64,000 nucleotides of DNA, taken from NCBI GenBank assembly GCA_913055735.1, contig CAJXKD010000002.1, positions 984,150-1,048,149 of the forward strand, given 5' to 3'. The stretch comes from an uncultured Rhodospirillales bacterium (GTDB taxonomy: Bacteria; Pseudomonadota; Alphaproteobacteria; Rhodospirillales; UBA2165). Shown piece by piece: positions 1-48,963 of the stretch (the stretch's first letter is position 1; the number at the start of each line of letters is the position of its first letter). Below the pieces are notes generated by a model that did not search any database, was not told where the DNA came from, and saw only the letters and a program-made list of their open reading frames with translations. Made by a program: the position numbers and the translations under genes.

Positions 1-852
1 CGCGGCGGCGGCGGCCACCTGCACCGGCGTAAAGGCGCCATAATCGAGATACGATTTGATGCGCGCCAACGCGGCAATGAGATGCTTGTTGCCGGTGGCG
101 AAGCCGATCCGCCAGCCTGGCATGGAATAGGTTTTGCTCATGGACGTGAATTCGACGGCCACGTCCCGCGCGCCCGGTACCTGCAGGATGGACGGCGGCG
201 GCGTTGCGTTGTCGAAATACAATTCCGCATAGGCGAGATCTGACAGAATATAAATCTCGTGGAAACGGCAGAAATCGACGATCTGCTCATAGAAGCCGAT
301 ATCCGTCACCGCCGCGGTGGGATTGTTGGGGTAGTTGAGCACCACCGCCGTCGGTTTGGGCACGGAATGGATCACCGCCCGTTCGAGCGCTTCGAAATAG
401 TTCGCATCGGGCTCCACCGGCACGTTGCGCACGGACGCGCCGGCAATGATGAAACCGAATTGATGGATCGGGTAGCTCGGATTGGGCACCAGGATCACGT
501 CACCGGGGCTGGTGATCGCGGCCGCCAGATTGGCCAGCCCTTCCTTCGAGCCGAGCGTCGCGATGGTTTCCGTATCGGGATCGATCTCGACGCCGAAGCG
601 GCGGCCGTAATAGGCGGCAATCGCCTTGCGCAAACCGGGAATGCCGCGCGACGCGGAATACCGGTGCGTCCGCGGATCTTTCACCGTTTCCACCAGCTTA
701 TCGACGATATGCTGAGGCGTTGCCGAATCCGGGTTGCCCATGCCGAAATCGATGATGTCCTCGCCGGCAGCTCGGGCGCGGGCCTTCATCGCGTTCACTT
801 CATTGAACACATAAGGCGGAAGCCGCTTAATCCTGTGGAATTCCTTTTCCAT
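1..852 (-). CDS. PLP-dependent aminotransferase, class I/II (AlaC/AspC-like); C-terminus cut by the window edge
   Basis: Absent from the ORF track because it runs off the window. Reading the minus strand from ATG 852-850 gives MEKEFHRIKRLPPYVFNEVNAMKARARAAGEDIIDFGMGNPD...VLNYPNNPT...SMSKTYSMPGWRIGF with no stop down to base 1. NPT and SxSK (PLP-Lys)...GxR are class I aminotransferase signatures. The + ORF 259..888 is its antisense shadow. Confidence 0.85.
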   Translation of the reverse strand, partial: MEKEFHRIKRLPPYVFNEVNAMKARARAAGEDIIDFGMGNPDSATPQHIVDKLVETVKDPRTHRYSASRGIPGLRKAIAAYYGRRFGVEIDPDTETIATLGSKEGLANLAAAITSPGDVILVPNPSYPIHQFGFIIAGASVRNVPVEPDANYFEALERAVIHSVPKPTAVVLNYPNNPTAAVTDIGFYEQIVDFCRFHEIYILSDLAYAELYFDNATPPPSILQVPGARDVAVEFTSMSKTYSMPGWRIGFATGNKHLIAALARIKSYLDYGAFTPVQVAAAAA

Positions 853-969
853 CACCCGGTGCCGCGAAAACTCGCGTCTCTTCTATAGTTTAAACAGATT
901 AAATAGCCGACGACGCCCAGCCGTGCCAGACGCCATCCGCAAAGTTCAGCCGGTTTACAGCGTGGGAGG

Positions 970-2196
970 TCAGAAATCGATAAAAATTTCGGCCCGGCGG
1001 TTCCCGGCCTCTCCCGTCGGCATGAATTCCTCATAAACCGGTTCGGAATCGGAGGCGGCGCCGACGAACAAACTATCGGGCGGAGAGCCCAATTTCATCA
1101 GTTCCCGGGCAACGGCATCGGCCCGCGCCACCGAAATCTGGAAATTGACCATCTTATGCTGAACCACGTCCATATTGCGGGTCCGGCTGCTGGCATGACC
1201 AACAACCCGAATAGTCCCGCCGGTCTGCCGCTGCTGGTTCACGACCTGGCGCAGAATACGGCGATCGTCGGCATCCAAGTTGGCCGAACCGTTGTCGAAC
1301 AGGATGGTCGCCACTTGGTAGGTGCCACGGACGCCGGTGGGGTCGAATTCGGCAAGGGAGCGCGGCGCACCGGCCGGCGAAGCACGCAAGGCGCGGCGAG
1401 AGCGGGCGGGCGATGCCGCCGTTTCCATCGGCCGGGTGCCCGAACTGGACACCACGACGGTCCCGATTTCATCCTCGACCGATTGGAAGCTCGGAGATGC
1501 AAACCGCGGCGGCGGCGGCGCGTTGGACAGATCGACAATGGGCTCACGCGGCACGGCAGCAACTTGGGGCATCGTCGGTGCTGCAGTCGGCGCCCTCGCC
1601 ATTGATGGCTCCTGGGGTGCGGGCATCATCGGACGGGGCGCCGGCGGGGTTGGCGCTTGCATGGCTTCCGGGCTTGTACCGGACATCACCGGTGGAATTG
1701 GTTGGGCCGGCGGCGCGGGTGCCAATTCAGCCTGGCGTGTTGCACCTTCGGGCTGCAACGGGTTTACCACCTCTCCATCACGCCGGGCGATGCTGTCGGA
1801 ATACTGGCGGGCGTTTTCCCGATCGGCAACGAGGCCACGGGCAATCCGTTCACGTTCGATCCGCGAGGGCACGTCGGGCCGCTGCGGCACGGAGGAAACT
1901 TCGGGGATCGGCTCATCGCTGCCTGGCGGCGGTGTGTTCCGCTCCCCGGCCAGGCGGTTTTCGGCTTGCTGATCGCCGGCGCCGTTGGCCTGTTCCTCAT
2001 CGTCTCCGGTAATAAGGTCGCGCGCGCCCTTGTACCACTCGACGGGATTAACGGCGTCGGGGACGGATGAACAGCCGGCCAACAGCGCAATCATGCCAAT
2101 GGCCGCCAACTTGGAAGGCGTAATTGTCATCGGGAGGCCCAATCCTTTGTCGGATTTGCGGGATGAATCGGAATTGAAGTGAGTCTTATCTGCCAT
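970..2196 (-). CDS. OmpA-family lipoprotein with a long Pro/Ala-rich linker
   Basis: C-terminal OmpA-like peptidoglycan-binding domain (ILFDNGSANLDADD...IRVVGHASSRT...VARADAVAREL...GNRRAEIFIDF). Lipobox LLAGC follows an internal Met (ATG at 2130), which is the more likely true start. The middle of the protein is low-complexity P/A-rich. Confidence 0.8.
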   Translation of the reverse strand: MADKTHFNSDSSRKSDKGLGLPMTITPSKLAAIGMIALLAGCSSVPDAVNPVEWYKGARDLITGDDEEQANGAGDQQAENRLAGERNTPPPGSDEPIPEVSSVPQRPDVPSRIERERIARGLVADRENARQYSDSIARRDGEVVNPLQPEGATRQAELAPAPPAQPIPPVMSGTSPEAMQAPTPPAPRPMMPAPQEPSMARAPTAAPTMPQVAAVPREPIVDLSNAPPPPRFASPSFQSVEDEIGTVVVSSSGTRPMETAASPARSRRALRASPAGAPRSLAEFDPTGVRGTYQVATILFDNGSANLDADDRRILRQVVNQQRQTGGTIRVVGHASSRTRNMDVVQHKMVNFQISVARADAVARELMKLGSPPDSLFVGAASDSEPVYEEFMPTGEAGNRRAEIFIDF

Positions 2197-2446
2197 CTGC
2201 CCTCGGAATCCCCTATCGCTTATCCCGCCCTCATGGGAGCTATCGGCATCAGATTAGTGGAAGTGCCGGCAATAAATGGTTAACAGGTTGCGTGTTTCAG
2301 AAGCCATCCGCCATATTTGCGGCAGTATCCCCATCAAATATATACCAAATATATAGAGGATGGTGGCTTCGAAAGGAAGCAGTGCGGCATCGTTTCCGTC
2401 GACTGCTTGCATCCGTTCGGCAAACCGGTGCCGCCTTGTCCCCCAA

Positions 2447-2974
2447 TCAACCCTCGAGATTTCGGCGATGCGTTATGCCAAGTTGCCGGTAATGCTCGAC
2501 TTGCGCGGGCCAGGTGGCGACCTCCTCGGGCCTCAAATCGCGCATTTTCTTCGCCGGGTTACCCGCCCACAATTCGCCTTTCTTGACCCGTTTTCCGGGC
2601 GCGACCAGCGCCCCGGCGGCAACCATTGCCCCTGATTCGACGACGGCGCCATCCAAGACGGTGGCGTGCATGCCGACGAAACAGTTGTCTTCCAAGGTAC
2701 AGGCGTGGATCAGAGCCATATGGCCGATGACGATATTGGCGCCGATATAGGTGTCGAACGCATTCTTGGTGATGTGGACGACGCTGCCGTCCTGGAGGTT
2801 CGTATTCTCGCCCACATAGATCGAGCCGTCATCGCCCCGCAAGACACAGCCGTACCAGATATTCGCCCCAGAGGCGATTTTGGTATTTCCGATCACGGTC
2901 GCGTTCGGCGCGATAAAGGCATCTTCGGCGATTTCGGGGTGAGTTCCCTCATAGGGTACGATTAGTCCGCTCAT
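2447..2974 (-). CDS. gamma-carbonic anhydrase family / hexapeptide-repeat protein (YrdA/PaaY-like)
   Basis: 175 aa. Left-handed beta-helix hexapeptide pattern (IAPNATVIGNTKIASGANIWYGCVLRGD...IYVGENTNLQDGSVVH...IGANIVIGHMALIHACTLED) typical of this family. Confidence 0.8.
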   Translation of the reverse strand: MSGLIVPYEGTHPEIAEDAFIAPNATVIGNTKIASGANIWYGCVLRGDDGSIYVGENTNLQDGSVVHITKNAFDTYIGANIVIGHMALIHACTLEDNCFVGMHATVLDGAVVESGAMVAAGALVAPGKRVKKGELWAGNPAKKMRDLRPEEVATWPAQVEHYRQLGITHRRNLEG

Positions 2975-3157
2975 GGCTCTTCCTTATTGGATTTCCTTGG
3001 CTTGCCGCCGGTTCTTCAGAACCTAGCCCATGAAAAGGTTAACGCCAAGCACCCCCGACAAGGGCCGCCAAGATTGACATTATGGCCCAATTCCCGTACT
3101 TCCGCGCCAACGCGCGATGCGGTCGCGCCTTATGAAATCGATCTGGAAGCCTAATAC

Positions 3158-4495
<1,338 letters not shown>

Positions 4496-4608
4496 AACGC
4501 GGCCCCACGCACCGCGTATGGCGCTTTGACAATTGCGGCTGTTTGGCGACAAACTACGGCGACCAGTTGTCTGGGCGACAAGAAACAACACGCGGGGAAT
4601 ACCGACAG

Positions 4609-4851
4609 ATGCAAACAATCTTCATACAGGTCAAATGCGAACTGGGTGAAGCCTACAACGTAGCCGACCAAGCCGTCGAAACGGTCGAACAAGTGTCGGA
4701 AGTTCACTCCACGTCAGGCGAATACGATCTGTTGATCAAATGCTATCTCGACGACGAAACCGATATCGGGCACTTCGTCACAGAGAAGATTCAGCGTCTC
4801 CCCGGCGTCAAAGACACGTTTACCATCATCACGTTTAAAGCGTTCGCTTAG
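4609..4851 (+). CDS. stand-alone Lrp/AsnC-type ligand-binding (RAM) domain protein
   Basis: MQTIFIQVKCELGEAYNVADQAVETVEQVSEVHSTSGEYDLLIKCYLDD...IQRLPGVKDTFTIITFKAF is the AsnC_trans_reg beta-alpha-beta-beta-alpha-beta pattern with no HTH. I start at the internal ATG 4609 (GGGGAA upstream) rather than 4543. Confidence 0.7.
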   Translation: MQTIFIQVKCELGEAYNVADQAVETVEQVSEVHSTSGEYDLLIKCYLDDETDIGHFVTEKIQRLPGVKDTFTIITFKAFA

Positions 4852-4894: not shown

Positions 4895-5876
4895 CGGGAC
4901 GCACACCGCCGCCGGCGCGATCCGTATTGCCGATGAACTTCATCGGTTCGACGCGCGGCGACCAATCCGGCATCACCAGCCACAACCGCAACAAATGACG
5001 CCGCAACGCCGGATCGGTGTGATCGCGGTAGTCGGTGCGCGCGTGATAAAGCCGCCGGTTGTTGAGGAACTGGATGTCGCCCGGCCGGAAATGCATATCG
5101 AGATAAATTTCGGGCCTGCGGGTGACGTCGGCGAGATAGTTCAGTGCTTCCCACTGCGCGTCCGTCGTGTGATACCCCTCTTTCTCCGCCGACCGGACGG
5201 CGACCGGCAGCAGAAATGTCTCCACCCCATCCGCCCCTTCGGCAAAGACCGGAATGGACGCCGGTTGTTCATGCCCCTTGTGGGTTTGCCGGCTGTTGAA
5301 AACAGGCTGATACAGTATATCCAACAGGTCCGGACGTTCTTCGGCAATGACGTTATGCACAGCCATGGCGCTGGCGATGCGACTCGCGCCTCCCTCCACC
5401 GCCGCACGCAAACACAGCAGGCCGACCACGTCGATGGGATCCATGTGAAACTCCAACGCGCCGCCGACGGTATAATATCTGCCGTCCCCATCGCCGCCCC
5501 GGTCGAAGACATGCCCGAGCCGGTCGCCGTCGGCGCTTTGCGACACACCGATCCCCAGGTGCGCACCGATTCCCCAGAAAATGACGCCGAGTTCGTCATC
5601 CGAGTAATCCTCGACCGGCAGGCCCCGCACCATGACAAACCCGCGCCCGACCCGCAGTTCATCGCGGACCGCCGCAAAACTTTTCTCGAGTGTGGGCAGA
5701 TTGAAATCGGCGAGTGTCACGTCATCAAGCGTGAGGCCCCGCGCGCGGACGTCTTCCGCCGCCCGCTCCAGTTCCGCGCGTTCGTCGGCGCTCAGCCGGA
5801 GAATCCAATCATCGCGCCGCTGCTGATCGGCACCAAACCAGACATGCGGCCCAGCCACCAAGTCATGTGCCGTCAT
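4884..5876 (-). CDS. TauD/TfdA-family Fe(II)/2-oxoglutarate-dependent dioxygenase
   Basis: MTAHDLVAGPHVWFG...RGFVMVRGLPV...GALEFHMDPIDVV (HxD iron motif)...NNRRLYHARTDY are typical of the TauD-like clavaminate-synthase fold. Start set at ATG 5876 (MTAHD), not the upstream 5984. Confidence 0.75.
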   Translation of the reverse strand: MTAHDLVAGPHVWFGADQQRRDDWILRLSADERAELERAAEDVRARGLTLDDVTLADFNLPTLEKSFAAVRDELRVGRGFVMVRGLPVEDYSDDELGVIFWGIGAHLGIGVSQSADGDRLGHVFDRGGDGDGRYYTVGGALEFHMDPIDVVGLLCLRAAVEGGASRIASAMAVHNVIAEERPDLLDILYQPVFNSRQTHKGHEQPASIPVFAEGADGVETFLLPVAVRSAEKEGYHTTDAQWEALNYLADVTRRPEIYLDMHFRPGDIQFLNNRRLYHARTDYRDHTDPALRRHLLRLWLVMPDWSPRVEPMKFIGNTDRAGGGVRPAAE

Positions 5877-6046
5877 GAATATGTTCTCCCAAAACCATCG
5901 CGTTTTCCTGATCTTATTCGACCGCCAAGCACGAACCAAGGCAACCGTAATAAGTGTCCGCGAATGGGGGCTGTACAGGGACAAGCGGTTCGGCCCATAG
6001 TCCTCAACGTAACATTATATTCATTCCCGACGGGCCATGAAGGACC

Positions 6047-7741
6047 GTGACGAGCACGCAGGAGGGAAACGGGCAGCCAATGACCGCGGCGGTTTTTTTT
6101 GAAGGTCTCCCAATTCAGGAGGACCGCCCCCTCGGCATCAATGTCGCAACGGCCGAGTTTCATCGTGCCTTCGCCCGATATGCCCGACAGAGCGATCTTC
6201 CCGCGATCTGCGACGGCACATCTCATTTCAGCAAGTACCGGGAATTGGTTTCGGCCGCCAGCGCCGATCCCAGCCGCTGCGTTCAGGTCAACCGGTTGGA
6301 CGGCGATGCGTTGGCCAAAGTGGGAACCGCCGTGCGCTATGATCCGGCCATAACGGAGCAACTCTGGCTGCGCCGCGCCCAGGGACAAACGCGCTACAGT
6401 ATCGTCGGCTTCACCCACGCCAGTTCGACCGCCGCCGTCATGGATGCACTCGGCAGCTATGCAATCGCACCGGCGCAATCCTGGGACGCCTTGATCTGTG
6501 CCTCCAACGCCATCAAATCGGCCGTACAGACACTATTGGACGGCTGGTGCGACTATCTTTCGGCACTGACCGGCGGATCGGCGTCGTGCCCGATGCAGTT
6601 CCCGGTTATCCCCTTGGGCGTCGACGCCGAGAGGTTCTCTTCGGCCGTGCGGCCCGAGGAACGTCAGCGCCAACGGAATGCCCTCGGTCTCGATCACGAT
6701 GCCATCGCCGTTCTCTACTCTGGACGCCTCAACCATATCGCCAAGGCAAATCCCTTGCCATTGTTTCTCGCCGCAGAAGAAGCCGCGCAAGCAATCAGTG
6801 TCCCGCTGCATGTTATCTTTCACGGTTATTTCCCCGACGACGCCATCGAACCCGCCTTCAAGGAAGCGGCTGCAAAACTGTGCAAGGTGGCGCGTGTTTC
6901 GTTCATCGCCCATGACGACCGCAATTTCCCCGACGGCGTCTGGGCCGCAGCCGATATTTTCTGTTCCCCCGTCGACAACATCCAGGAGAGCTTCGGCCTG
7001 ACACCGGTCGAGGCCATGGCCGCCGGCCTTCCGGTGATCGTCAGCGACTGGGACGGATATCGGGACACGGTGCGCGACGGCGTGGACGGATTTGCCGTCT
7101 CGACGATTCTTCCCGCCGCCGGGACGGGGACGGACATTGCCTTCGCTTATTTCGACAATCCCGGCATGTACGGCGATTTCCTGAGCGCCACCTCTCAATC
7201 GACGGCGATCGATACCCATGCGCTCGCGGTTGCGCTGCGCCGGCTTGCCGAGCATCCCGAGCTACGCGAAAAGATGGGTGCGGCCGGCCAGGCCCGCGTC
7301 GCGGCGACGTTCGACTGGCGGCACGTTATTGCCGCTTATGACGATCTGTGGCACGAGTTGGCCGATCGCCGCGCGTCGGGAACCGAGCGCGTGCCGATGG
7401 CAGATGGAGGAGACTTCCATCCCCTGCGCCCCGACCCGTTCCGCATGTTCGCCGATTTCGCAACGGCGTCGTTCGAGGACGGCGGCGCGGTGGAACTCGC
7501 CGCGACGGAATGGGCCGATACGATCAAACGGATGGGACTGAAAATCGGCACCGTCCACGCAGGTGCCCTCATCGACCTGGAGGACCTGCCGCTGGTGTTC
7601 GCGCACCTGGAGGCGTCCCCGGGGATGACCCTGGCCGAGCTGTGCGGGCGGCTGGATGCGTTTGACGGTGCCCGGCTGCGCCGCACGATCGCCTGGTTGG
7701 TGAAACTCGGGATCTGCCGCTACCGGGCGCCGAACGCGTAG
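6047..7741 (+). CDS. glycosyltransferase, GT-B fold (family 4/group 1-like) with C-terminal extension
   Basis: Characteristic GT1/GT4 C-terminal core ESFGLTPVEAMAAGLPVIVSDWDGYRDTVRDGVDGF. 564-aa ORF with an alternative start at ATG 6080. Confidence 0.75.
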   Translation: MTSTQEGNGQPMTAAVFFEGLPIQEDRPLGINVATAEFHRAFARYARQSDLPAICDGTSHFSKYRELVSAASADPSRCVQVNRLDGDALAKVGTAVRYDPAITEQLWLRRAQGQTRYSIVGFTHASSTAAVMDALGSYAIAPAQSWDALICASNAIKSAVQTLLDGWCDYLSALTGGSASCPMQFPVIPLGVDAERFSSAVRPEERQRQRNALGLDHDAIAVLYSGRLNHIAKANPLPLFLAAEEAAQAISVPLHVIFHGYFPDDAIEPAFKEAAAKLCKVARVSFIAHDDRNFPDGVWAAADIFCSPVDNIQESFGLTPVEAMAAGLPVIVSDWDGYRDTVRDGVDGFAVSTILPAAGTGTDIAFAYFDNPGMYGDFLSATSQSTAIDTHALAVALRRLAEHPELREKMGAAGQARVAATFDWRHVIAAYDDLWHELADRRASGTERVPMADGGDFHPLRPDPFRMFADFATASFEDGGAVELAATEWADTIKRMGLKIGTVHAGALIDLEDLPLVFAHLEASPGMTLAELCGRLDAFDGARLRRTIAWLVKLGICRYRAPNA

Positions 7742-14661: not shown

Positions 14662-14885
14662 TTCAAGAACCCCTTACCTAACGCGAGGCGATATCTAAAG
14701 TCGCCTTGCAGAACTGCGAGGCGACTTTAGATATCGCCCGCAGCATGACGTTCAATTCCAAACGGCTTGGCTATAGCACCAAGCGCAAGACACTCAACAA
14801 CCGTGAGGTGTCCAACTAAGAGGCAGGCTACAACGGTTACCTACTCAAAGGAAGCTGTCAAGACGGCGACCAAAACTTTAGCGAA
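14662..14885 (-). ncRNA. candidate retron non-coding RNA (msr-msd) region
   Basis: A 314-nt gap lies upstream of the effector on the coding strand. It contains a perfect 19-bp inverted repeat (14687-14705 / 14720-14738, extendable by about 3-4 pairs into the loop). It also has two short hairpins (14765-14784 gcttgg/ccaagc; 14789-14812 gacac(c)tca/tgagtgtc). A third partial copy of the arm (ctaaagt[tttgg]tcgcc) lies at about 14865-14881. The a1/a2 repeats and the branching G could not be fixed by eye. Confidence 0.4.
14687..14738. repeat. perfect 19-bp inverted repeat (ggcgatatctaaagtcgcc / ggcgactttagatatcgcc), 14-nt spacer
   Basis: Read directly from the sequence. The spacer ttgcagaactgcga is itself partly self-complementary. 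No U/T-run follows on either strand, so it is not a classical intrinsic terminator. Confidence 0.95.
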
Positions 14886-14975
14886 CACGAGATTTCATTA
14901 AACCGCGCATAGATTGGGTGCGTTCTTTAGCTTTCGATACCTCTGCCTTCGGGCCAGATTTGGCATCCCACTTGC

Positions 14976-15368
14976 TCACAGGGTAAAAATACCACCTATG
15001 AAAATAAATAGGCCCCCGATGATAAACAGGCCGAGCGACGTCCACATTAACGATACGCTGAAAAAACAAATCCTCGGTTCTTTTAGGTTGAATCCGAATA
15101 TTTTCCCGGCGGGAGGGCTATACCCGTGGCTTTCATACTCAAGAGAACATAAACGCCGGAACCGATTGTGAATGACTGCACAAACCAGCCCAAGCTGAAA
15201 TGCCAAAAGCGCCCACAAAATCGACCAAGAAAGTGGGGCAAACTCCGATTTGCCGATAACGGTGGGCAAAAGAGCGAGAAGGGCAACAGCGCCACCGCCG
15301 TTCAAAAGCACCAATCCTTTGACAACATCGCTGTCAATTTGTGCGCGTATTTCCAATCCTTTTGTCAT
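14976..15368 (-). CDS. small integral membrane protein (about 3 TM), function unknown, within the AT-rich island
   Basis: 130 aa with hydrophobic stretches (GLVLLNGGGAVALLALLPTVI; LSWSILWALLAFQLGLVCAVI; ICFFSVSLMWTSLGLFIIGGLFIFIGGIF). Strong SD GGAGGA 8 nt upstream of ATG 15368. Same strand as the RT operon. Confidence 0.6.
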   Translation of the reverse strand: MTKGLEIRAQIDSDVVKGLVLLNGGGAVALLALLPTVIGKSEFAPLSWSILWALLAFQLGLVCAVIHNRFRRLCSLEYESHGYSPPAGKIFGFNLKEPRICFFSVSLMWTSLGLFIIGGLFIFIGGIFTL

Positions 15369-15519
15369 TGAGCAAATCCTCCATCCGGAAATTGAAGCTA
15401 CAAGGCGCCCAATAGCAGAAAAGGACTAGCCCAGACGGGCTTGATCCCTGTTAAAGCTTTTATTCTAAGGTTTGGATAGTTTAAGTCAGTACGCGGGATG
15501 AGCGCAAAGGCACGAGATA

Positions 15520-15945
15520 ATGCCGCCGATTAAACAAAAAATGCACCTAATCTTCGTCGGTGCTATTGCGATCTGGTTGGGCGTAACATCGATCCAAACC
15601 GCAGTGGCAGACGAGACGTTGAGCCGCGACGCGCTGACGGCGCTGTTCGCCAACAAAAGCATCGTTTATCCGTATAAAGAGTCAGACGAAAACGCCGTCG
15701 TCTTCATGGACCGGTTCGGCGGCACGGAGACCTACGTGCCGTGCGAGTTTTCCCACGGCACATGGTGGGTGAGCGAGGATGCGCGCCTGTGCTGGCAGGA
15801 CAGCCAAGAAAACAATATGGGCGATCCGGCGCCGCAGTGTTTCACGCCGCAGATGTCGGGAAGCGACATCGAACTCACCGATGCAAGCGGCGCGCTCGCC
15901 GTTGCCGGCAAGCTCATCGAAGGCAGCCGCATTCCCACCGGCTGA
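15520..15945 (+). CDS. secreted hypothetical protein (signal peptide; possibly DUF995-like)
   Basis: N-terminal signal sequence MHLIFVGAIAIWLGVTSIQTAVA|DE. Four Cys in a G-T-W-W-V...LCW...QCF pattern. No catalytic motif recognised. Confidence 0.6.
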   Translation: MPPIKQKMHLIFVGAIAIWLGVTSIQTAVADETLSRDALTALFANKSIVYPYKESDENAVVFMDRFGGTETYVPCEFSHGTWWVSEDARLCWQDSQENNMGDPAPQCFTPQMSGSDIELTDASGALAVAGKLIEGSRIPTG

Positions 15946-15982
15946 CTGATCGAGTATCCCGATCCCGGCGCGTGACGCCGGG

Positions 15983-44827: not shown

Positions 44828-46153
44828 CTAACTGGCTTCCCGGGACACCGGCGGACGGCCGACACTCACATAGTCGAAGCCGGCGGCCTCCATGTCGGCC
44901 GGGTCGTAGATGTTCCGATAGTCGACCATGCGCGGCGCGGCCATGAGCGACTTAACCCGTTCCAAGTCCAGCGCCCGGAACTCATTCCATTCGGTGACAA
45001 TGGCCACGACATCGGCTCCGGTTACGGCGTCATAGGAGTTCTCGCACCAAATAACACCTTCCAGGAGCTTCTTCGCTTCATCCATCCCCTGCGGGTCAAA
45101 CGCCCGGACCTTTGCCCCGCGATTGAACAGAGACGGAATAATTTCCAGGCTCGGCGAATCCCGCATGTCGTCGGTATTGGGCTTGAAAGTCAGCCCAAGG
45201 ACGGCCACCACCTTCCCCTCCAGTCTGCCGCCGCAGATTTCCGATATCTTGCCGGACATACTTTTCTTGCGCCGATCGTTCACGTCCACGACGGTTTCGA
45301 CAATGCGCATGGGGCTTTTGGCATCCTGCGCAGTGCGCACAAGCGCCAAGGTATCCTTGGGGAAACAGGAGCCGCCGTAGCCCGGCCCGGCATGGAGGAA
45401 CTTGCGGCCGATGCGCCCATCGAGCCCGATCCCCCGCGCCACGTCCTGAACATTCGCGCCGAGGGTTTCACAAAGGTCCGCAATTTCGTTGATGAAGGTG
45501 ATCTTGGTCGCAAGAAACGTATTGGCGGCATATTTGATCAACTCCGCCGTCCGCCGCTGCGTGAAGATGATCGGCGTTTCGATCAAATAAAGGGGACGGT
45601 AAAGAGCGCGCATGACTTCGCAGGCACGTTCCGACGACGATCCGATCACGACACGGTCCGGCCGCATGAAATCGGTAATCGCCGAACCTTCGCGCAGGAA
45701 TTCGGGGTTCGAGACGACATCGAATTCGGCATCCGGCCGCACCCGGCGGACAATCTTTTCCACCTCGTCTCCGGTGCCTACCGGCACCGTCGATTTGGTG
45801 ACGATGACGGTGTACCCATCCATCGCCTCCGCGATCTCTTTCGCGGCGTCGAAAACATATGTCAGGTCGGCATGGCCATCGCCCCTGCGGCTCGGCGTTC
45901 CGACGGCGATAAACACCGCATCCGCCCCGCGCACCGCGGCCAGCAGGTCAGTAGTGAATGACAAACGGCCCGCCCGTGCGTTCGATTCGACGAGGCTGTC
46001 CAACTCGGGCTCATATATAGGAATTTCGCCGGCGTTAAGCTTGGCGATTTTGTCCGCGTCCTTGTCTACGCAGACGACATCGACCCCGAATTCCGAGAAA
46101 CAAGCGCCCGACACCAACCCCACATAACCGGTGCCGATCATCGCTACTCGCAT
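44828..46153 (-). CDS. ugd: UDP-glucose 6-dehydrogenase
   Basis: N-terminal Rossmann MRVAMIGTGYVGLVSGACFSEFG, catalytic GGSCFPKD and a C-terminal UDP-binding domain. 441 aa. Confidence 0.93.
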   Translation of the reverse strand: MRVAMIGTGYVGLVSGACFSEFGVDVVCVDKDADKIAKLNAGEIPIYEPELDSLVESNARAGRLSFTTDLLAAVRGADAVFIAVGTPSRRGDGHADLTYVFDAAKEIAEAMDGYTVIVTKSTVPVGTGDEVEKIVRRVRPDAEFDVVSNPEFLREGSAITDFMRPDRVVIGSSSERACEVMRALYRPLYLIETPIIFTQRRTAELIKYAANTFLATKITFINEIADLCETLGANVQDVARGIGLDGRIGRKFLHAGPGYGGSCFPKDTLALVRTAQDAKSPMRIVETVVDVNDRRKKSMSGKISEICGGRLEGKVVAVLGLTFKPNTDDMRDSPSLEIIPSLFNRGAKVRAFDPQGMDEAKKLLEGVIWCENSYDAVTGADVVAIVTEWNEFRALDLERVKSLMAAPRMVDYRNIYDPADMEAAGFDYVSVGRPPVSREAS

Positions 46154-46193
46154 ATCTTATCCTTTTTTTGTTCGACTGTGCGCCTGTACACGC

Positions 46194-47060
46194 TCAAAGG
46201 TTTTTGAGCATATCCCGAATTTGATTCCGCATATTTTCCCGTGCGAGCGCAAACGCGACATTGGCTTCAATGAAACCGAAATGATTGCCGCAATCGAACC
46301 GGCGCCCGTCAAAGCGCATGCCGTGAAACGGGATTTTCGATATCGTCTTGGCCATGGCGTCGGTCAGCTGAATTTCGCCCCCCGCGCCTTTTTCCTGCTT
46401 GTCCAACTCCTGGAACACTTCCGGCTGCAGAATGTAGCGGCCGATAATAGACAGGGTTGAAGGCGCATCGGCGGGCTTCGGCTTTTCCACCAGGCCTTGC
46501 GCACGGGCGAGGCGGCCGTCGTCCTCAGTGACATCGAGCACACCGTACCGGTCGGTCTGATCCCGCGGCACATCTTCAACGGCCACCAAATTGCCCCCGA
46601 TTTCGTTGTAGGTCTCCACCATCTGCGCGAGGCAACCTGGTTGCGCCATAATCAGGTCATCGGCGAGCAAAACCGCAAACGGCTCATCACCGACCAACCG
46701 GCGCGCACACCAGACGGCGTGACCAAGGCCCAACGGCTTCTGCTGACGGGTATAAGCGATCCGTCCCGGTTCCAAATTCATCTCGCGGACGGCGGCAAGC
46801 GCATCCGTCTTACCGCTCTCCTCCAACGATCGTTCCAATTCGGCAGAGGTGTCGAAATGGTCTTCGATGGCGGTTTTCGCCCGGCCCGTGACGAATATAA
46901 TCTCTTCGATACCCGCCGCCCGCGCCTCGTCGACGGCGTATTGGATCAGCGGCCGATCGACGATGGGCAGCATTTCCTTGGGCATTGCCTTGGTCGCGGG
47001 AAGAAACCGAGTACCTTGTCCGGCAACCGGAAACACCGCCTTCTTAACTGACTTGATCAT
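46194..47060 (-). CDS. galU: UTP--glucose-1-phosphate uridylyltransferase
   Basis: KAVFPVAGQGTRFLPATKAMPKEMLPIVDRPLIQY...LLADD...VEKP are canonical GalU motifs. 288 aa. Confidence 0.93.
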   Translation of the reverse strand: MIKSVKKAVFPVAGQGTRFLPATKAMPKEMLPIVDRPLIQYAVDEARAAGIEEIIFVTGRAKTAIEDHFDTSAELERSLEESGKTDALAAVREMNLEPGRIAYTRQQKPLGLGHAVWCARRLVGDEPFAVLLADDLIMAQPGCLAQMVETYNEIGGNLVAVEDVPRDQTDRYGVLDVTEDDGRLARAQGLVEKPKPADAPSTLSIIGRYILQPEVFQELDKQEKGAGGEIQLTDAMAKTISKIPFHGMRFDGRRFDCGNHFGFIEANVAFALARENMRNQIRDMLKNL

Positions 47061-47190: not shown

Positions 47191-47952
47191 TTAATCAGGC
47201 TTGTAATAACTGCCGGGAATTACGGGGATCGCCTCGGGATCAGCCTTTTCCGCGGCCGCACGTTTCTCCGACAAGCCCTTAAAATCGGCGACGGCCTGAG
47301 GCCCGGCCTGCTCAAGCCCGGCCATGAATTTCTTCCGGTCGCGGGGGCTCCAAGAGGCTCGCTCCGTATAGAACGGCACCCATTGATTCTTGATACGGTT
47401 CGTCTGGAAATCGATGGCCCCTTCGAGCGCTTCTTCGACATCGCCGAGAGCGGTCCAAGCGGCCTTATAAAATACGAACCCGCCGCGGCCGATAATCCAG
47501 GTCATGTTCGGCGCGGACCCAAAAGCCTGGTGGGCGCCACCATCCAAACCATCGAGCAGTATCTGACGACGGACACCGAACCGCTCCTTGAAGGCGCGGG
47601 CATTGGCGCGCTTGCCGTCCATCGAGGTATGGTGGCGAAAATTTTCGCCCGGATGAGCTTCCCGCGTATAGATGAATACCGAGCGCACGGCTTGGTCCGC
47701 ATAACGGTCGGCGAGGTCTTCCATGGCCTCCGCCGCCATCGCGCAATAGGGTCAGGTGATCGAGCCGAACTCGATCAGCGCGATACCCTTTGTCCAAAGT
47801 TCCCTCATCTCGACGGTTTCACCGGTCTCCAAGTCTTCGAGAGGAAACGACGGTGCCCGCATAGTGGCCTTTGGCGCCACATGCGCGAATTCTTCGAACT
47901 CTTCGAGATCCACATAAAAGACGCTGTAATTATATTCCTCAGCCGTCTTCAT
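47191..47952 (-). CDS. deiodinase-like thioredoxin-fold selenoprotein (in-frame TGA at 47754-47752 read as Sec, codon 67)
   Basis: Track ORFs 47752..48018 and 47191..47739 are in the same frame, separated only by TGA CCC TAT TGC GCG. The joined protein reads ...GIALIEFGSIT-U-PYCAMAAEAMEDLADRYADQAVRSVFIYTREAHPGENF. This matches the iodothyronine-deiodinase family active site FGS.T-U-P and the downstream Y..EAHP motif. AGGAGG lies 8 nt before ATG 47952. Confidence 0.7.
47709..47735 (-). promoter_or_regulatory. candidate bacterial SECIS hairpin
   Basis: mRNA positions 20-46 after the U of UGA read CGGC-G-GAGG [CCAUGGAAGA] CCUC-GCCG. That is an 8-bp stem with one bulged G and a GG in the 10-nt apical loop about 30 nt from the UGA, within the usual bSECIS window. 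Confidence 0.45.
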
Positions 47953-48114
47953 TGTTCGCCCTCCTAACAATCTCGTTGACGCGCACCATAGCAATCGAGG
48001 CGAATCTTTCCACTTCAACTTTGCGGGAGGAAAGGCTGGACTGACCGCCGATACGGACTAACTTAGGCGCACCAGACCGACCTGAATGCGACTGGAACTA
48101 GGGGAATTGAGGTT

Positions 48115-48963
48115 ATGTCAGAGAAACGTTTTCTTGCCCGAACCGCCCCCGGCATGCCGACCACCGACGGCGCCGGCGTCAAGCTGACCCGGATGGTCGG
48201 AACGCCGTACCTGGATATGGTCGACCCGTTTCTGATGCTCGATCGTATGGATTCCGACGACCCCGATAGTTATATCGCGGGATTTCCCAATCATCCCCAT
48301 CGCGGTTTCGAAACCGTGACGCTGATCCTCGAAGGGCTGATGCGTCACAAGGATTCGGTCGGCAACGAAGGCGTTTTGGGTCCGGGCGACGTCCAATGGA
48401 TGACGGCGGGACGCGGTATCATCCACTCGGAAATCCCCGAGATGGTCGAGGGCCGGCTCAAAGGCTTCCAATTGTGGGTCAATCTTCCCTCCCACCTGAA
48501 AATGACGGCGCCGACATATCAGGATATTCCCGCGCAGGAGGTACCGGTCGTCGAAGGCCCCGGCAGTAGCGTGCGAGTGATCACCGGTTCTCATGAAGGC
48601 CATGACGGCCCGGCAAAGGCGCACACGCCGATCCGTGTCCTCGATGTGCGCCTCGACGCGGGTTCGACTTGGACGACAACCCCCGCGGACGGCAACGGCC
48701 TGTTCATGTGCGTATACGAGGGCTCGATCACGGCGCTCGACAATCTTGGCCGCGAGCAGGAAATTGAAGCGCCCAAATCCGGGATATTCCACGGCGACGG
48801 ACCCGTCGAAGTTACCGCAGGAGCCGACGGCGCCGAGATCCTTTATTGCGAAGGCGCGCCCATCAATGAACCCGTTGCCCGGTACGGCCCCTTCGTCATG
48901 AATACCAATCAGGAATTGGAACAAGCGGTGCGCGACTACAACGCGGGTCTTTTGGCGACCTAA
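48115..48963 (+). CDS. pirin-family protein (bicupin)
   Basis: GFPNHPHRGFETVTLILEG...H.DS.GN.G.L..GDVQWMTAGRGIIHSE is the pirin N-terminal cupin signature. 282 aa. Confidence 0.9.
   Translation: MSEKRFLARTAPGMPTTDGAGVKLTRMVGTPYLDMVDPFLMLDRMDSDDPDSYIAGFPNHPHRGFETVTLILEGLMRHKDSVGNEGVLGPGDVQWMTAGRGIIHSEIPEMVEGRLKGFQLWVNLPSHLKMTAPTYQDIPAQEVPVVEGPGSSVRVITGSHEGHDGPAKAHTPIRVLDVRLDAGSTWTTTPADGNGLFMCVYEGSITALDNLGREQEIEAPKSGIFHGDGPVEVTAGADGAEILYCEGAPINEPVARYGPFVMNTNQELEQAVRDYNAGLLAT

Follow-up and report, generated by a model that had tools for sequence, protein, structure and literature searches.

In a 64,000-nucleotide stretch of an uncultured Rhodospirillales bacterium (contig CAJXKD010000002.1; the whole stretch is called the window below), a gene on the reverse strand carries an in-frame TGA and very likely encodes a selenoprotein of the deiodinase-like family. 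A sequence-only reading of this DNA had proposed a probable deiodinase-like selenoprotein, and the proposal is supported by the selenocysteine (Sec, U) or Cys column of the homologues, by the family assignment, and by a conserved hairpin. Taken as a full explanation, it is highly probable that 47952-47191 (-) is a single gene for a cytoplasmic 253-residue thioredoxin-fold selenoprotein of the prokaryotic "deiodinase-like" UxxC family. It is a real, un-annotated selenoprotein gene, and its kind is already known. The features to which the text refers are the following.

47191 to 47952, reverse strand: selenoprotein coding sequence of 253 codons plus TAA (47193-47191), with the ATG at 47952-47950.
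47752 to 47754, reverse strand: UGA codon 67, Sec, the predicted catalytic residue (TGA in 49/49 loci, Cys in the homologue P0002, alignments of Sec on Sec).
47743 to 47745, reverse strand: Cys70 codon TGC, the +3 partner of UxxC and the putative resolving Cys (Cys at +3 in 50/50 family sequences).
47703 to 47740, reverse strand: hairpin resembling a selenocysteine insertion sequence (SECIS), nucleotides (nt) 15-52 from the U of the UGA, core stem 47735-47709.
47644 to 47670, reverse strand: codons 95-103, Y-T-R-E-A-H-P-G-E, a deiodinase-type motif (Tyr95, Glu98, His100) that is invariant in the family and aligns with YI(D/E)EAHP of Dio2/Dio3.
47960 to 47965, reverse strand: Shine-Dalgarno sequence AGGAGG, read directly, 7 nt 5' of the ATG.

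Reading frame and gene structure

The sole interruption of the frame 47952-47191 (-) is the TGA at 47754-47752. The listed open reading frames (ORFs) 47752..48018 and 47191..47739 share one frame, and the gap between them consists of this TGA plus CCC TAT TGC GCG. Coordinates and frame of the earlier claim, namely one gene mis-split by an in-frame TGA and four codons, were reproduced. When TGA is read as Sec, the conceptual translation is ...LIEFGSIT-U-PYCAMAAEAMEDL...VFIYTREAHPGENF..., and the predicted tryptic peptide spanning codon 67 is GIALIEFGSIT-U-PYCAMAAEAMEDLADR. The N-terminus MKTAEEYNYSVFYVDLEEFEEF is acidic; sequence inspection revealed no hydrophobic segment, signal peptide, or membrane anchor.

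Five independent metagenome assemblies carry the gene without a single base change; in their flanks, 14 of about 6,700 positions deviate from the window. Hence, the TGA is no sequencing artefact. As TGA is also the terminator of 13 of the 42 large ORFs in the window, the adjacent galU-like gene included, the genetic code is standard. A scan of the window for a second selenoprotein gave, as other TGA-split ORF pairs in the same frame, spurious high-GC ORFs only.

Gene callers solve the locus differently, as two products: a 66-residue peptide ending at the UGA and an independent protein of 177-182 residues starting from ATG 47739 or ATG 47727. An in-frame ATG does lie 5 codons past the TGA, and termination at the UGA is expected as a by-product under selenium scarcity. 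However, direct reading finds no sequence resembling a Shine-Dalgarno motif 5' of ATG 47739; this absence, like the AGGAGG before ATG 47952, had been pointed out in the sequence-only reading. Furthermore, the thioredoxin fold of the C-terminal piece would be left without strand beta1 and without its active-site U/C. Both the Cys form and the distant relatives with Cys, described below, are single full-length proteins, and the two pieces are adjacent and in frame in 49/49 loci. We consider two products very improbable, and two separate genes were rejected.

Conservation of the UGA codon and of the coding sequence

One genome per species was scanned by tblastn, which gave 49 homologous loci from Alpha-, Beta-, and Gammaproteobacteria, Acidobacteriota, Acidimicrobiia, Polyangiaceae, and Holophagae. 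In these 49 species loci, the matches cover query residues ~3-253 and cross the TGA. The TGA stands at exactly codon 67 in every one of them; TAA or TAG was found in none, and no frame disruption occurs near this codon. The motif U-[PA]-[YF]-C is present in 50/50 family sequences and reads U67-P-Y-C70 in the window.

A protein search returned 341 homologues. Among the 120 listed, 119 cover only the part after the UGA (~62-72% of the query) and are mostly C-terminal pieces of 177-196 residues. The only full-length homologue among the matches listed is P0002, with 254 residues, 56% identity, and the active-site sequence FGSFT-C-PYC, in which the codon is TGC. Distant full-length relatives (30-37% identity) mostly have Cys in this column, in contexts of the FGS.TCP type. 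Thus, both checks named in the sequence-only reading, Cys or Sec in this column of the homologues and an undisturbed frame in close homologues, turned out in its favor.

The 66 residues before the UGA are kept as protein: in the alignment of 50 translations, YNY..F, RAPSFPLEDL.TG..V.M..LW, and EFGSFT are conserved. Pairwise identity at the first, second, and third codon positions is 0.70/0.77/0.46 upstream of the TGA, 0.84/0.84/0.54 downstream, and 0.74/0.79/0.47 further downstream. Because the third codon position varies most, as it does downstream, the part before the UGA carries a coding signature.

These comparisons decide the question of a pseudogene, in which a former Cys codon (TGC/TGT) would have become TGA by nonsense mutation, or would read as TGA through an error of sequencing or assembly, and no full-length product would be made. 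A single base separates TGA from TGC/TGT, every public gene call cuts the locus into pieces of 66 and 177 residues, and the 64-kb window holds no Sec machinery, all of which would fit. On the other side stand the identical TGA in 49/49 species from several phyla, the identical gene in five assemblies, coding-type conservation on both sides of the TGA, and a hairpin past the TGA which is under synonymous-site selection (see below). The probability left for a pseudogene is negligible, and this explanation, sequencing error included, is effectively refuted by the comparative data.

Four further observations concern the homologues themselves. The distant full-length relatives P0135 and P0144 read FGC(F/W)T-A-PPC, with Ala in the Sec/Cys column and Cys at -4 and +3, a pattern that, judged from the sequences, hints at a displaced active site in some members of the wider Cys family. 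P0107 (266 residues) and P0118 (269 residues) start after the UGA and owe their length to C-terminal extensions without homology, which probably stem from gene calls with a frameshift or read-through; they are not full-length Cys forms. Alpha- and betaproteobacterial members occur in a long form with a ~30-residue tail ending in (V/I)PGN(F/Y)Y (region 47191-47290 of the window). Acidobacterial, actinobacterial, and myxobacterial members have a short form that ends soon after GPQAV.DFYG.

A conserved hairpin downstream of the UGA

The core hairpin at 47735-47709 starts 16 nt 3' of the UGA and pairs CGGCG-GAGG with CCUC-GCCG around the loop CCAUGGAAGA. The stem-loop with a GG-containing loop that had been described at this place was reproduced, and a hairpin is conserved here family-wide. 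The invariant AUGGA at 47724-47720 (-) sits in the apical loop. With a minimum free energy (MFE) of -18.4 kcal/mol per 42 nt, the window hairpin ranks third among the 237 segments of this length in its own gene. Averaged over 50 genes, the 42-nt MFE shows only one deep minimum, which lies at +12..+15 after the UGA and measures -18.9 kcal/mol; the remainder of the profile lies mostly at -7 to -14 kcal/mol. Across the family, no other place in the gene folds as stably as the hairpin 12-54 nt past the UGA.

Synonymous-codon resampling holds the protein and the codon usage constant. By this method, the real sequence was more stable in 49/50 genes, with a mean z of -1.94. The hairpin is kept by synonymous-site selection. 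The gene of the Cys form P0002 has no such hairpin at this position (-6.2 kcal/mol, rank 124/241), as seen in this one sequence.

The sequence-only reading had called the stem-loop compatible with a bacterial SECIS (bSECIS). The published bSECIS model (PMC13188914) sets a loop of 3-9 nt, an upper stem of 4-16 bp, a G in the first two loop positions, a spacing of 16-37 nt, and an MFE <= -7.5 kcal/mol. In a strict coding of this model, 48/50 genes pass, with a mean energy of -22.7, and 61% of control positions pass, with a mean of -10.9. As so many controls also pass, pass or fail is weak evidence here, and it is the energy contrast that is informative. For the window hairpin, the compatibility held with respect to spacing, stem, energy, and family-wide conservation; it did not hold for the G in the first two loop positions.

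Selenocysteine machinery

In three of the homologous loci, sel genes or a tRNA-Sec lie within 3 kb of the gene.

L044: In this Rhodospirillales metagenome-assembled genome (MAG), the gene at 3001-3678 (+) is located between selB-selA at 335-2847 (-) and selD at 3767-4747 (-).

L022: A tRNA-Sec with the anticodon TCA adjoins selB at 5522-6734, ~2 kb downstream of the homologue.

L033: A tRNA-Sec, likewise with the anticodon TCA, is found at 4262-4357, 0.5 kb downstream of the homologue.

No tRNA other than the tRNA-Sec genes of L022 and L033 was found in the 49 flanks. By a rough estimate, fewer than one such co-occurrence with Sec machinery would be expected by chance.

The lack of any sel gene or tRNA-Sec within the window itself would suit read-through without Sec, i.e., near-cognate insertion of Trp or Cys, or a reassigned code, in an organism where the Sec pathway is absent or unused. 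Low-level insertion of Cys or Trp at UGA occurs in bacteria. However, TGA ends large ORFs of the window, including the galU-like neighbour, and is an ordinary stop there, so that a reassigned genetic code was rejected. The family-wide hairpin at SECIS distance and the adjacency of selA/selB/selD or tRNA-Sec in three loci both point to SelB-dependent decoding. Moreover, replacement by TGC would be expected often if Cys were adequate, and it was found in 1 of ~50 sampled genes. We regard read-through without Sec as quite improbable and infer that Sec is inserted in the source organism.

Family assignment and fold

The window protein reaches 28.9 bits with the Pfam family T4_deiodinase (PF00837), a small margin above the gathering threshold of 27, and 27.5 bits with AhpC-TSA (gathering threshold 26). 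Ten other family members score about equally with the two profiles: nine of the ten reach 27.2-36.6 bits with T4_deiodinase, and AhpC-TSA gives 25-38 bits. The NCBIfam model NF038285, "deiodinase family protein," gives 51.4 bits, below its cut-off of 250, and covers only profile positions 175-339 of 347. The best sequence matches among solved structures are mouse Dio2 (9h48) and Dio3 (4tr3), in whose alignments the Sec residues coincide, as do the EAHP motifs. The deiodinase-type signature FGS.T-U-P with the EAHP motif, which had been recognized from the sequence, is confirmed by these PDB matches and by the T4_deiodinase score above gathering. AhpC/TSA and T4_deiodinase score alike. The name "deiodinase-like" stands for a thioredoxin fold of peroxiredoxin/deiodinase (Prx/Dio) type and makes no statement on activity.

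For the fold, the Cys homologue P0002 was modelled with AlphaFold. The best Foldseek matches of this model are CxxC oxidoreductases of the ResA/TlpA type (target-normalised TM-score 0.80-0.83, root-mean-square deviation 2.5 Å); Dio3 follows at rank 9, with Bcp-type peroxiredoxins close behind. The ResA/TlpA, Prx, and Dio folds are not separable by this comparison. The fold is of the thioredoxin type, within the Prx/Dio/TlpA class; Sec occupies the N-terminal end of helix alpha1, and the Cys at +3 is invariant.

The existence of "deiodinase-like" selenoproteins in bacteria was predicted from Sargasso Sea sequences (Zhang and Gladyshev 2005; PMC1088965). In the Global Ocean Sampling data, 22 Sec and 21 Cys sequences of this kind were counted (PMC2398784), and reviews of 2022 and 2026 list "Deiodinase-like" as PF00837 with UxxC (PMC9312934, PMC13188914). 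The published sequence AACY01552292 (supplement of PMC1088965) reads ...IIEFGSIT-u-SECALAAP...FIYTREAHPGE...LPNMTYIV...YKSDWT. Its alignment with the window protein over 161 residues (E 5e-38) gives 37% identity and pairs the two U residues. Hence, the gene is a new member of this known, predicted family. Identity to a Dio-type Sargasso sequence (FGSYT-u-PPF...EAHPLDGW) is 22%. On the basis of these alignments, we place the window protein in a distinct clade of the computationally predicted family.

Observations that weigh against the assignment

Several results count against Sec decoding at this UGA, or against the family and function assigned to the protein. The bSECIS model is loose and passes the above share of control positions in these GC-rich genes. 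The window hairpin has GG at loop positions 3-4 (AUGGAA), or else a 10-nt loop; because the GG is not at positions 1-2, it narrowly fails the G rule of the model. The sole window hairpin that passes strictly is a different, non-conserved one. On the 49-sequence alignment of 63 nt starting at the UGA, RNAalifold gave no consensus structure, since the register of pairing varies from lineage to lineage; for this reason, position-wise energy profiles and synonymous-codon resampling were used instead. Rfam gave no SECIS or other credible match at gathering or permissive settings. The invariance of AUGGA can also be explained by conserved Met-Glu/Asp residues.

The 64-kb window contains no tRNA according to ARAGORN and no selA, selB, or selD according to tblastn with E. 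coli SelA, SelB, and SelD. The P0002 model is only moderately confident, with a mean predicted local distance difference test score of 60.9 (core 75-86). As to function, ORF clustering of the 49 flanks identified no family-wide neighbour gene, and synteny is limited to close relatives. A literature search found no experimental study of bacterial deiodinase-like proteins.

Likenesses to and differences from known systems

Sargasso deiodinase-like family: The window protein shares with this family Sec in FGSIT-U-xx-C, a hairpin past the UGA, the occurrence of both Sec and Cys forms, and the motifs FIYTREAHPGE, LVD.L.G..H..YG.LPNMT, and YK..WT. It differs in that the window clade is at least 52% identical internally, as compared to 37% to AACY01552292, and has an extra conserved helical C-terminal region of ~75 residues (NR.K.QWVPFYSERSAW..RD...F..GLERAGPQAV.D). 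Unlike the Sargasso family, the window clade is almost exclusively of the Sec type (49/49 species), with one Cys form found.

Dio1-3: Common features are the thioredoxin/peroxiredoxin-like fold and Sec in FGS-x-T-U-P. A proton relay of Ser, Thr, Tyr, Glu, His, and His has been proposed for deiodinases (PMC11592359). All of these residues are matched in the window protein by S64, T66, Y95, E98, H100, and H108, which are (nearly) invariant in the family. In contrast to Dio2/Dio3, the Dio insertion (omega loop, loop-D, SDGW...) is 9-12 residues shorter, and the Trp of the Dio loop is replaced with Phe or Tyr in the window family (GENF/GENY for SDGW). The N-terminal membrane anchor of Dio1-3 is absent. 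The distal Cys of Dio3 (APGC) is missing as well, and an invariant Arg129 is found in that region. The putative resolving Cys of the window protein is at +3 (UxxC), where the sequence of animal Dio is UPPF. In bacteria, thyroid hormones would not be expected as substrates.

TlpA/ResA/DsbE: The spacing of the redox pair, C/U-x-x-C at the start of helix alpha1, is the same, and the fold matches. These proteins are membrane-anchored or periplasmic, whereas the window protein has neither signal nor anchor. Identity to them is 15-20%, and the EAHPGE/His network is absent from TlpA/ResA/DsbE.

Peroxiredoxins (AhpC/TSA, Bcp): The Ser at -3, as in T/S-x-x-C, and the invariant Arg129 before the ILLD strand resemble peroxiredoxins. 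Unlike in these enzymes, the Pro of PxxxTxxC is absent, with Ile at -7 in the window protein, so that the motif is incomplete.

Gene neighbourhood

Upstream of the gene, a divergent pirin gene is located at 48115-48963 (+). Downstream, a run of galU, UDP-glucose dehydrogenase, and phosphoglucomutase genes occupies 44828-47060 (-). This pirin/galU-run order was confined to L001-L005, the assemblies of the same organism, and lacks conservation across the 49 loci. Elsewhere in the window, 14662-15982 is a stretch of 1.3 kb without an ORF >=150 residues on either strand, the longest such gap.

Proposed mechanism

During translation, UGA codon 67 would be decoded as Sec, for which the mRNA hairpin within the coding sequence, ~12-16 nt past the UGA, would recruit SelB with Sec-tRNA(Sec).

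U67: The selenolate at the N-terminus of helix alpha1 would be the nucleophile that attacks an oxidised or halogenated substrate.

C70: Cys70 would then resolve the oxidised U67, giving an intramolecular selenenylsulfide, and a reductant of the thioredoxin or glutaredoxin type would reduce the U67-C70 bond again.

S64, T66, Y95, E98, H100, and H108: This network probably supplies the proton to the leaving group.

Such a UxxC selenenylsulfide redox cycle is slightly more likely than not. Candidate substrates are peroxides, disulfides or sulfenic acids, and organohalides, none of which is strongly favored.

It is conceivable, though unlikely, that the clade is a true Se-dependent reductive dehalogenase, used by bacteria living free in soil and water. 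Substrates would then be iodinated or brominated phenolics or compounds resembling iodotyrosine; the halogen would be abstracted by U67 as X+, with Cys70 in place of the animal distal Cys. Such an activity, if true, would represent bacterial ancestor-type chemistry of the thyroid-hormone deiodinases.

Significance for the family

The gene calls for this clade lack the N-terminal part in 119 of the 120 listed entries (of 341), and the few named ones are "hypothetical protein." In five assemblies of the window gene, a separate 66-residue ORF is called upstream. Because the N-terminal part is missing from the gene calls, the catalytic residue is missing from the databases, and too few selenoproteins are counted for many MAGs from soil, freshwater, and the sea. 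The clade is also unusually strict in its use of Sec, with one Cys form in ~50 sampled genes. As the deiodinase catalytic network is kept together with a UxxC pair, this clade is a good compact, soluble candidate for testing bacterial deiodinase-like function.

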